A stretch of 64,000 nt of DNA from Eledone cirrhosa (lineage: Eukaryota). How positions within the stretch are numbered: the first letter of the stretch is position 1; each line of letters starts with the position of its first letter. The notes below the pieces were generated by a model. The model was given only the letters and a program-made list of their open reading frames with translations, was not told the origin of the DNA and made no database searches. A program made the position numbers and the translations under genes. Shown here in pieces: positions 23,291 to 28,003 of the stretch. The stretch lies in assembly GCA_964016885.1 (NCBI GenBank), contig OZ024741.1, positions 375,534,001 to 375,598,000 on the forward strand. Direction: 5' to 3'.

Positions 23291-24237
23291 AGCTAGAGCA
23301 CGCTTAATGATTTTGTTTCCTCATAACTTTCTTATTATTGTTCTGTAAGATAATAGTAAAATGTCAAGCTTAAAAGAAGTAAAAGTTTCAGAATGCAGCT
23401 TATATACATATTTTTTCGCCTCCATTGCGGTTTTGCCCTCATCAGTGTGGTGCTCCCTTGGAGCCCCAATTACTGACTGAACTTTCGAGTTCCTTTTTCG
23501 ATCGAATATGGCTAACCATGAGCAACTATTAAAAAACCTTGAGGCTTTTGAGTCCCTCCAAGGTTTTTTTATACATAGGAATTACTTGTTGATTCCTAGG
23601 TTGTATTTTCTCAGAGTTAGCCCCTGTTATAGACTCTCGTCGTCTCTCCAACACTATGACAACTTAATCTTCAGTGAACTCAAATGCTTGGTCAATGTCA
23701 AACTTTCTCCAGATTCCCGTGATCAGGCTCTCTTGACCAAACGGTTTGGCGGTCTATATTTGCGTAAATGCTCATTTCTGTCTCTTTCTTATTTTCTTTC
23801 CTCCATCCATGCTTGTTCCTTTTTGGTAGGTAACATCCTCTCATTTCTGACATGGACTAGTTCCTACAGTGGAGAGAGCAGGGTTTGTCAGTTCCTGATA
23901 CAGATGAAGATAGATGGAAGCAGAAAGTATGGGATAATCTGCATTCAAGTGATACCTTCAACTCTCTTTGATCACTCTGATCAATTTTCAAGGTGTCACC
24001 TACTTTCTGCAGACCCAAAATTCTTGGGGGCCTTGGTTGATGCCCTGCCTGTGGCCAATATTGGTGGCCTTCTCAGTCTGGATGAGCTATATTGTATGCA
24101 GAGTGGAAGGTGATGTATATGGGGGTCTGAGATGTCGCTGTGGTAGGCCCCTCGACTCTGCAGGCCTCTATGGTTTGTCTTGCCTCTTGAATTCTGGTCG
24201 CTTCACCCGCCTCACTGAGGTAAACCTGATCATTCAG

Positions 24238-24313
24238 TGGGGTCAAGATAGGAGCGTCCACACCGCAGCCCTTGGAGTATCAATAAGATTGACAAGATAT
24301 TGCTAATCCTATC
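24238..24313 (+). ncRNA. HDV-like self-cleaving ribozyme at the 5' end of the Vingi-like LINE
   Basis: P2 GATAGGA/TCCTATC; P3 GCG/CGC with L3 TCCACAC; P1' AGCCCTT then GG (P1.1 with L3 CC); P4 AGTATC/GATATT; J4/2 GCTAA. P1 5' strand TGGGGTC is imperfect. Confidence 0.82.
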
Positions 24314-27052
24314 ACCACCACAACAGTTATAAGCTACAAAACAGCCAAAAGTGACGCTGAAAGCTACAAGCCACAAAGCTACGGAGCGCCAAGAGAAAAT
24401 GCCATGCCTAGAGATAGACAGAGTTTGATGTCAGAAAGGAGGGACTTCTTCAAGACCAGCATTGACAGTCATATCTGCAAACATTGAAGGGCTCTCCTCT
24501 GCAAAACAAAGCATCTTAGTCAAGCTATGCAGCAAGCAACACTGTGATGTTCTCTTCTTGCAAGAGACACACAGAGGAGTGAAAACAACCGGTCCACCAT
24601 ATCTGAAATGGCCCTGGCCATTGAGCGACCCCATCAACAGTACGATGTTTGTAAAAACAGGCGTACTTATAGAAGAAATGGACATGTCAGATGACATGAC
24701 ATCAAAGTCTTATCTGTTGAGCTAAACAGTGTATAGTAGAATCTGTCTATAAACCACCACCTGTAGACTTTATCTTTTCCCAGCCAATCCCCAAAGTACC
24801 CAGCAAACCACAGATCATTATAGGTGATTTCAATAGCCACAGTACCCAGTGGGGCTACCCTGAAATGAACAAGGATGGAGAAGCAGTGGAGGACTGGAGT
24901 GATACTAATCAACTGAGTCTTATCCATGTCCACAAGCTATCACATTTGTGTTTCAGTGCTCGCTGGAAACATGGCTATAACCCAGATCTCACCATCATTA
25001 CAAGCAACATTGCTGGACTGTGTAAAAAGACAGTGCTGGATCCTATTCCATAAAACCAACACTGTTCAATTGGGATCCTAATCAATGCAGCTGTAGTCCC
25101 AATTATTGGGCCTTTTAAAAGGTGCTTCAACTACAAGAAAGCAGACTGGAAAGGTTTCACCAACGAGCTGGAAGAGAAGATCAAACATATAATGCCAACA
25201 AGCAATAACTACAACCTCTTTGCTAACCTGGTGCTGAAAACTGCCTGGAAACATATCCAATGAGGCTGTAGTTGAATATATACCTGGACTTTCATAGGAA
25301 TGTACAGAACTCTATGCCAACTATATCAGCATGTTTGAAGCAGACCGCTTCTCAGAAGAAACAACTGCCCAAGGCGAGAAGCATTGCCCAAGAGCGAAGC
25401 AAGACCTGGAATGCTTTTATTAAGTCTATGAACATATACAAAAAACAGCAAGAAAGCATGGACACTTATTCACAAGATACGCGGTGATCCTAAAGCAGCC
25501 CCTCAGCACCTTAAAGCCACTGCCAACCAAGTTGCTAGCCAATTGCTAGAGAATGGAAAGAGTGGAAATAGAGGAAAGAAGATCAAACTAAACCGCAAGA
25601 AATACACTGTGAACCTTGCTTTTACAAGACCGTTTATCATAGAAGAGCTGGAAAGCAGGAATCTCTACCTTCAAACCAGGAAAAGCAATTGGACTAGATA
25701 ACGTCACAGGTATGGTAGCCAGTGTGGCGTTTGTCGACCTCTCAGCTGCCTGACACAGTCAACCACAGATGTCTCCTGGAGACTACAAGAGACACCTGTC
25801 TGACGGAGTTGATTGAAAGCATGCTTGGAAACAGGCACTTCTTTGTTGAACTAAGAGGGAAAAAAAAGCAGATGGTGAAGACTCAAGAATGGCCTCCCAC
25901 AGGGAAGTGTGCTTGTTTAATTTCTCTTCAACATCAACACCAATGACCAACCAAAAAGTGCATACACTCGCCGCTTCATCTATGCAGACGATCTTGGCAT
26001 AGGTACACAATATAGAGTCTATATTCCACAAAGTTGTGGAATATAGACTCTTCAATGCTCTGGAAGAGCTAACACCTTATTAAGAGAACCACCTACATGC
26101 AAATCCATCCAAGATGCAGGTGTATACCTTCCACCTGCGAAACCGTGAAGCCAAGCACCAACTGAAGGTCAACTGTTCAGGAATCCCCCTTGAACATTGT
26201 GAGCACCCAGTCTATCTAGGTGTAACTCTGGACAGGTGTTTCTCTTTTAAGATCCGCATTGAGAAGACCAAGTGCACAGTGAATGCGAGAAACAACATCA
26301 TCCGCAAGCTCACTGGCACAACCTGGGGTACAAACCCACAAACTCAGAAGTCAACTGCACTAGCTCACTGCTACTCAGCTGCCGAGTATGCATGCCCAGT
26401 ATGGGAGTGAGCTGTCCATGTCCAGAAACTAGATCCTGCTATCAATTCTAGCTTCCGCCTCATCACAGGCTGCCTGAAATCTACACTTACGGACCGTCTA
26501 TATATCCTGGCAGGCATAACTCCACCAAAGATATGACGAAGTGCAGCAAGCAAGAAAGATCATCAACAACTGACTACAGATGAAAAACATCCTCTCTTCA
26601 GCCATGTGCCAGCCAAAAGCTACGTTAAATCCAGAAAAAGTTTCCTAAAGAGCGTCATACCCCTTGGAACATCAAGATAAGTAGTGAAAGAGTCACTGGC
26701 TGGGAAGAAAAACTTAACAACCTCCCATCTGTAACAACAATAAAGCTAAAGGTGAGCAGATACAAACTATGCAGTATGGAAATGCCTAAACAGACTAAGA
26801 GCTGGTGTTGGACATGCAAAAGTCACTCTTGCAAAAGGGGATATTTAAAGGATGGGGAGATGGTGTATGACTGTGGCATCAAACCACAGGCTACACAGCA
26901 CCTCCTGATATGCCTCTGCTGCTATACCACTGCACAGAATTGGACTTGGCAGAGTTTAATGAGAAAGGACAGCAATGTGTTCAGCTGTAGCAAAACCACA
27001 TCTAGCTCAGTTTTGTAACTGACACTCTTGTGGACCCGACAAGAAGAAGAAG
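24238..27052 (+). mobile_element. Vingi/Ingi-type LINE, both ends present, with an internal RT deletion and decay
   Basis: APE: TVISANIEGLS..K, LQETH, GDFNSHSTQWGY, SARWKHGYNPDL. RT: AFVDLSAA, GLPQGSVL, FIYADDL. Then FHLRNREA..L, YLGVTLDR, YSAAEYACPVW and a (GAA)n tail. No ORF1. Confidence 0.88.
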
Positions 27053-28003
27053 CAAGCCCTAACTTGGGTAAATATCCTCTCAGTTCTGGAGCCAGTTAGG
27101 TTATCCAGAATTCCTGGGAAGAGACCAGATGGTCTTATCCTTGGTTCTCGGTAAGAGTTAGATGTCTCATCTGAGATGCCACAGTCAATGACTCTTTTGC
27201 TCCCTCCTACATCCTGGATGCTGTGGTAAATGTGAGGGCCTCTGCTTCCATAGCTAAACAGAATAAAATTCTAAAATATTAGAAATTATAAACAATCTCT
27301 TTTTCCCAGCCAGTAGAATTCGAGACATTTGCGGGAGCTGGGTCACTGACAGCAAAGTTCTTTCCATCATTAGCAGCTTACTTTACTGAGGTATCAGGTG
27401 ATGCCCATGAGGGTGCTTGGTTATTTCAGCACCTTAGCCTTGCCATCACCTGCAGTAATGCTGTGAGCATGTAGATTTGTTTTAAAAATTTCCAATGACC
27501 CTTGTGGTATGTGAATAATTGATGCATTTTGTGTTGAAGTGATGGTTTTTTTCTTTTCCTTTTTTTTTCTCACTTTAATTATATATTTTTGCATATTATA
27601 TTTATAAGGTTCCTAGCAATAATAAATTGATTATTATTATTGGGGTTAAAAAATATACCGTACATTAAGTAATAAAGTAACAGGTTTCATATTGATCCTA
27701 CCATACAAGAAATATCAACACAATGTATTAACAGAATATTTCTAGCTCGATAATACAGAGTATAGAAATATGTTTGTTATTGTTATGTGAGTAAATTTAT
27801 ATCTATGTTCTTTGACTTAGCTCAAAGAGAGAGAGAAAGAAAGTATCATGTCATAAGGCTTGGCCAAAAGCTAAATTAGTGGCAAGTGGCCAGAAGTGCA
27901 GTCTTTCATATTTGTGTAGCATTGAGCATCATAGAGCTGGGGGAAAAACTATTAGAAATTCTATAGCTTAAAGTATGGAAGGTGGAAAGAAGGCTTCAAA
28001 TAT

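Follow-up and report, generated by a model that had tools for sequence, protein, structure and literature searches.

We asked whether the head of the LINE that interrupts a host repeat in this 64-kb stretch of DNA (henceforth ‘the window’) could have served as a self-cleaving ribozyme of the HDV type, and at which base such a ribozyme would begin. The insert occupies about 24239-27052 of the forward strand, to which all coordinates below refer. The host repeat, whose upstream part was searched over 23980..24238, is broken exactly at the start of the element and resumes at about 27050-27056 (aligned over 27053..27250). The repeat is multi-copy (40 scored of 593 candidates), and its translation contains motifs of a reverse transcriptase (RT) followed by a Cys/His knuckle and a restriction-like endonuclease, which make it CRE-like; Pfam gave no name for it and the Atlas clusters are unnamed. 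The earlier note on this DNA, which placed the fold where a host CRE frame is interrupted, was right about the interruption, which is exact, but its CRE label has no name from Pfam or the Atlas behind it.

The HDV-like fold spans 75 nt (24239..24313), with the cut predicted between T24238, the last host base, and G24239, which is base 1 of the element (G1). Its helices P1, P1.1, P2, P3 and P4 follow one another in the order of the nested double pseudoknot, and the window copy breaks two of the pairs. P1 consists of six pairs between 24239..24244 and 24267..24272, opening with G24239·U24272 and ending in a distal pair that is broken by A24267 (G in 28 of the 34 other copies in the alignment described below). 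It is followed by the 2-nt linker J1/2 (AA, 24245..24246) and by the 5′ strand of P2 (24247..24253), which pairs with 24307..24313; across the 35 rows of that alignment, 93.9% of P2 cells are paired. P3 (24254-56 with 24264-66, spanning 24254..24266) encloses a 7-nt L3 (24257-63). J1/4 (24273..24275) reads GGG in family A, as we call the family of the window copy, and starts with T24273 in the window copy itself (G in 30/34 other copies), so that one of the two P1.1 pairs (24258-59 with 24273-74) is broken. P4 and its loop occupy 24276..24301 (stem 24276-81 with 24296-301), a region that differs among copies in 9-nt length steps, and the 5-nt J4/2 (24302..24306) holds C24303, the predicted catalytic residue equivalent to C75 (C in 30/35 rows). 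The stretch 24044-24320 is identical in three contig sets, all from one sample. All of the motifs listed in the earlier note are present at the coordinates it gave, as is the mismatch it saw at the distal end of P1; the GG that it took for P1.1 is, in the family, part of a GGG.

A strict HDV descriptor matched the window, both strands included, at only two places, 24239 and 56422; the second match has a 26-nt linker and no clear P4 and is probably due to chance. Could the first also be a chance arrangement of short helices? The nested (pseudoknot-free) minimum-energy fold of the window copy shows no excess stability (z -0.75), and the Rfam CPEB3 model (RF00622) scores 24227-24313 at 22 bits (E 0.02), under its cut-off of 35. 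Both results speak for chance, although the former is expected because the fold is a pseudoknot.

The start of the element could be fixed by several comparisons. T24238 aligns with T or C at the empty site in 11/11 other host-repeat copies examined and, since these empty-site copies run through its equivalent and on into the sequence that in the window lies beyond about 27050-27056, it is host DNA. Among 35 copies of the element the -1 column is variable (T14, A11, G7, C3), and column conservation rises from 11-16/35 before G1 to 24-34/35 from G1 onward. Junctions were scored in 38 anchored family A sequences (37 loci and the window), counting tail-adjacent duplications that scored at least 7. 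A target-site duplication was scored in 16/38, and 12 of these 16 fit a junction exactly at G1, the predicted cut site: in five the duplication stops at G1, and the other seven run on only through G bases that the element start also has. The four that depart from G1 are L044 (+1), L059 (-12), L066 (-4) and L070 (-2). In a related family, B, a tail-adjacent duplication was found in 5/16 loci, four fitting G1 and one ending 2 nt earlier. The window copy has no flanking target-site duplication of 7 nt or more; its own is either very short or decayed. The fold thus lies at the 5′ junction of the element as the earlier note had claimed, starting at G24239 rather than T24238, and copies begin at G1 instead of well upstream, the case that the note had named as telling against it. 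The 7-nt P1 that it drew from T24238 is off by one base, and the mismatch that it assigned to the first position of P1 falls outside the helix. For family A, a 7-bp P1 register is rejected by the junctions, the empty sites and the -1 column; a register shift confined to the window copy alone is possible.

Other features of the junctions were apparent. At 11 of the 16 G1-fitting junctions (within L043-L076 and L219-L228) the target continues with G (binomial p about 2e-5, computed at the G content of the window), and the host site in the window likewise continues with G in most host-repeat copies. Such continuation with G, which matches the first bases of the element, hints that the end of the cDNA anneals to target DNA. 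L075 has a tandem duplication of the six bases that open the element at its 5′ junction.

Searching the window’s own genome with the 5′ region gave at least 41 matches (40 of 136 candidates scored), and a separate search with a 22-mer gave 10 exact matches. We retrieved 38 family A loci and aligned 34 of them with the window copy (35 rows), excluding L060, L062, L073 and L077, in which the ribozyme is partly deleted or replaced. The family register is a 6-bp P1 with G·U first (in 22/35 rows), a 2-nt linker, a 7-bp P2 and a 3-bp P3 closed by a 7-nt L3; three G then lead to P4, and the C75 equivalent lies in a J4/2 of 5 nt. The family majority forms a standard pair at 21/21 positions counted and also has the U20·G25 pair in L3 that the window copy, with A24262, lacks. 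Over the alignment, 85.8% of cells pair, compared with 37-46% when partners are slid. Ribozyme length is 66, 75, 84, 93 or 102 nt in 27/38 sequences, the changes being located in P4, where a 9-nt tandem unit is gained or lost. All pairs and core bases are intact in only one of the 35 rows, L068. Covariation within the family did not exceed that of shuffles (376/500 reach the same percentage paired), which is expected because copies decay after insertion but which also counts on the side of chance. Hence, of what the earlier note proposed to look for, the restored P1 pairing is found in the family consensus, and covariation is found across families (see below) and not within family A.

A few family A copies are near full length (L043 measures 3,026 nt from G1 to the duplication), and many are short and two-ended, 100-200 nt in length, with a small piece of UTR between the ribozyme and the 3′ tail. 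Among the short ones, copies of ~100-215 nt with differing breakpoints (L049, L055-L058, L061, L064, L065, L068, L069, L071, L073 and L075) are non-autonomous, and none of them has lost either the ribozyme at the head or the tail at the 3′ end. Inspection by eye for a 2A peptide, or for a conserved frame across the ribozyme, led to rejection of both, the upstream frame being inconsistent among six long copies.

A protein search of the same genome returned more distant families whose 5′ ends carry HDV-like folds built from other helix sequences. Against RF00622, four family B loci scored 55.6-61.7 bits, L118 39.3 bits and L110, a family C locus, 43.3 bits; five of the six family B and C loci scanned were above the cut-off (39-62 bits), and L119 and L107 gave no match. 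Two of four other family A copies scanned matched, at 23 and 31 bits. We then used metagenome LINEs chosen by protein alone: 80 loci, of which 23 reach the N-terminus and 19 have at least 200 nt to scan. The strict descriptor, which was written after families A and B had been seen, matched 6/19 of these upstream windows (four distinct families) and missed 13/19; on controls it matched 0/166 windows and 1/190 shuffles. By eye, some of the missed loci look 5′-truncated or decayed, and L124 and L133 have no clear fold. A relaxed parser resolved 9/14 representatives and left 5/14 unresolved. With L118 omitted for its closeness to family B, eight distinct families remained, in which 119/120 pairs hold when each strand is matched with its own partner, compared with 545/840 when partners are swapped between families, and only 1/40,320 permutations reaches the own-pair count. 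As parsing itself selects for pairing, the weight is carried by the swapped-partner figure and the controls. All eight families have in common G1, the G of L3, and the C of J4/2 with its A.

On these sequence comparisons the HDV-like fold is real and family-wide. That it should be a chance arrangement is strongly disfavoured and, in our judgement, highly improbable: the same fold stands in the same place in eight families with different helix sequences, the descriptor finds nothing in 166 control windows, and sister families exceed the cut-off of a curated ribozyme model. As a separate observation, the N-terminus of the predicted protein P0022 resembles a translated family A ribozyme, so that this more distant element may have a head of the family A type.

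What kind of LINE carries this head? The body contains a single broken ORF (24404..27005) for an AP endonuclease (APE), an RT and a C-terminal Cys/His motif, running from the ATG at 24404 to about 27005 with many stops and frameshifts and with about 325 bp missing at 25708; it is followed by a 3′ end motif and an (AAG)n tail (27030..27052), common to full-length and short copies. In six long copies the ATG lies 133-186 nt past G1 and opens a single ORF, APE then RT, without ORF1. RTE elements also have a single-ORF layout. Both the endonuclease and the RT domain are present in relatives of 900-1052 aa, and Pfam matched RNase H in none of 8 full-length relatives. Vingi is defined as lacking RNase H, unlike Ingi (PMC13708176), and 5′ ends of sister families match the Repbase-named Vingi-2_Gav. 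Judged by this architecture and this 5′ match, and not by a tree, the element is most likely a Vingi LINE, as the earlier note had suggested. Among the hosts named for its relatives are notothenioid fishes, sea urchins, lancelet, aphids and Anolis; a 22-member protein cluster from Anolis carolinensis, not named Vingi, shares 58% identity with P0005 across the RT region. No relatives were found in viral contigs, and the PDB matches were only to L1, R2 and group II intron RTs. Within the window, the closest named proteins to the decayed fragment at 24721-25053 (P0001-P0004) come from Antarctic notothenioid fishes and are 83% identical to it, and the N-terminus of P0004 is nearly identical; if the host is an invertebrate, such fish-like proteins suggest horizontal transfer. 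P0188, an Anolis carolinensis protein annotated as synaptotagmin-7 isoform X1, falls inside the LINE protein cluster and is probably a misannotation or an exonisation.

The window copy itself has suffered more damage than the earlier note, which rightly thought it might be impaired, had recognised. In addition to the broken P1 and P1.1 pairs, A24262, overlooked there, stands at the equivalent of G25 (G in 25/34 others), T24300 makes a wobble in P4, and loop positions also differ from the family majority. In a C. briggsae ribozyme, G25A left no visible cleavage at 60 s, and a C:U pair in P1.1 was compatible with fast cleavage (PMC13635239); G30A is present in active CPEB3 variants (PMC8233481). 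We therefore call this copy impaired mainly because of the G25 change, the P1.1 mismatch and G30A being tolerated in active ribozymes. Having lost the G25 equivalent and one pair each in P1 and P1.1, it probably has little or no activity; it is a fossil that probably does nothing now.

Given that the fold exists, lies precisely at the 5′ junction, persists in short two-ended as well as full-length copies and covaries across families, we consider it quite probable that 24239..24313 is the decayed head of a LINE, most likely Vingi, whose HDV-type fold in progenitors cut before G1 and freed a unit-length RNA. An active element would be transcribed inside a longer host RNA, and its first 66-102 bases would fold into the double pseudoknot. 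By analogy with the HDV class, Mg2+-dependent cleavage before G1, with the equivalent of C24303 as general acid, would leave a 5′-OH at G1. The fold would remain on the released RNA, target-primed reverse transcription would copy up to G1, and each new copy would in this way inherit the fold. HDV-like ribozymes are known with a P1 of 6-7 bp, a range that includes the 6 bp seen here, but linkers of 0-1 nt crippled another such ribozyme (PMC4908430), and the J1/2 linker of family A, at just 2 nt, counts against cleavage. In 17/35 rows the base at -1 is a pyrimidine, which could lengthen P1 at the expense of P1.1, an effect reported for L1Tc and R2 (PMC3185411).

The junctions at G1 are equally explained by an internal promoter that initiates at +1 and so do not separate cleavage from initiation. 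The 5′ segment might accordingly act mainly as an internal promoter for RNA polymerase II, in the manner of Pr77 in L1Tc, where promoter start and cut site coincide (PMC3185411, PMC8256844), with the ribozyme secondary. We regard this as unlikely, in that helix sequences change between families and the pairing and catalytic core are kept, a sign that the structure of the RNA has been under selection; a promoter and a ribozyme are, moreover, compatible and may coexist. Another reading has the fold kept as a structural cap or protein-binding handle that no longer cuts. The R2 ribozyme fold protects the 5′ ends of template RNA, according to a review (PMC13708176), short two-ended copies here keep the whole fold, and the short P1 and 2-nt linker of family A would suit such a role. 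Retention of the bases common to the eight families (G1, the G of L3, and the C of J4/2 with its A), which serve chemistry, together with junctions at the predicted scissile bond, nevertheless makes loss of cutting quite improbable. We thus retain self-cleavage in progenitors as the preferred reading, which supports the interpretation given in the earlier note.

This reading has close precedents. L1TcRz/Pr77 of the trypanosome L1Tc-ingi elements, a sister clade, and of their short derivatives NARTc and RIME has an HDV-like fold in its first ~75 nt, heads an APE-type LINE that is cut at its first base, and is common to two-ended non-autonomous derivatives (PMC3185411, PMC5786205). The first base of L1Tc, however, is C and its P1.1 is a single pair, compared with G1·U and a two-pair P1.1 in family A; the host here is a large-genome eukaryote, probably an animal, and the protein of the present element is without RNase H. 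Ribozymes of R2, R1, R4, RTE and LOA/Baggins perform the same 5′ processing from co-transcripts in other LINE clades (PMC5786205, PMC6765202). Vingi is not among the six ribozyme-bearing clades named in PMC5786205. Known Vingi elements (Vingi-1_Acar, Vingi-1_EE and Vingi-2_Gav) resemble the present one in having a single ORF with APE and RT and no RNase H, a length of about 3.0-3.1 kb and internally deleted derivatives. The passages on Vingi that we examined mention no ribozyme for it; other papers or patents may already include Vingi examples. In the octopus, mollusc and cephalopod literature the ribozyme phrase was not found among the best matches, which is weakly informative. The present locus adds a LINE clade, apparently unlisted, to the bearers of HDV-like 5′ ribozymes, with junction evidence from many insertions, and family A provides a natural variant in which P1 has 6 bp and the linker 2 nt. 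Platforms for RNA-only gene insertion make use of Vingi-1_Acar 5′ UTRs (PMC13708176), and if Vingi 5′ UTRs carry an unrecognised ribozyme, the design of gene-writing templates would be affected.

The scores of family B against RF00622 raise the further question of how these heads relate to the mammalian CPEB3 ribozyme, which has the same fold. Compared with the Rfam consensus, the metagenome locus L129 (55.6 bits) has 35 matching bases in the first 38 ribozyme positions and 11 in the last 12. Counted by eye in the supplement to PMC5786205, Vingi-2_Gav 2-74 agrees at 38/40 and 14/14 consensus positions, and the P4 arms of SINE2-1_AMi equal the consensus arms. The 3′ end of SINE2-1_AMi, labelled unknown in that source, closes with a motif like the one at the 3′ end of the present family and may come from Vingi. 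According to a review, no more than six nucleotides are invariant across the HDV class (PMC8256844), so identity of helix sequence argues for descent rather than convergence. The CPEB3 ribozyme differs in being intronic, conserved and present once, no element having been described next to it, and family A is more distant from it (22-31 bits, 6-bp P1, two-pair P1.1). Domestication from mobile elements has been suggested in general terms (PMC7761336), and our search of the literature on origin and exaptation did not find ‘CPEB3 ribozyme’ among the best matches. We think it likely that HDV-like heads are general in Vingi and that the mammalian CPEB3 ribozyme was domesticated from the 5′ end of Vingi, either of an element itself or of a short derivative; the direction of descent and the insertion event at CPEB3 are what we infer from sequence likeness. 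According to PMC8233481, no outgroup of the CPEB3 ribozyme is known outside mammals. If our reading is true, Vingi heads would be the missing outgroup for the evolution of this ribozyme, and its source would become testable.
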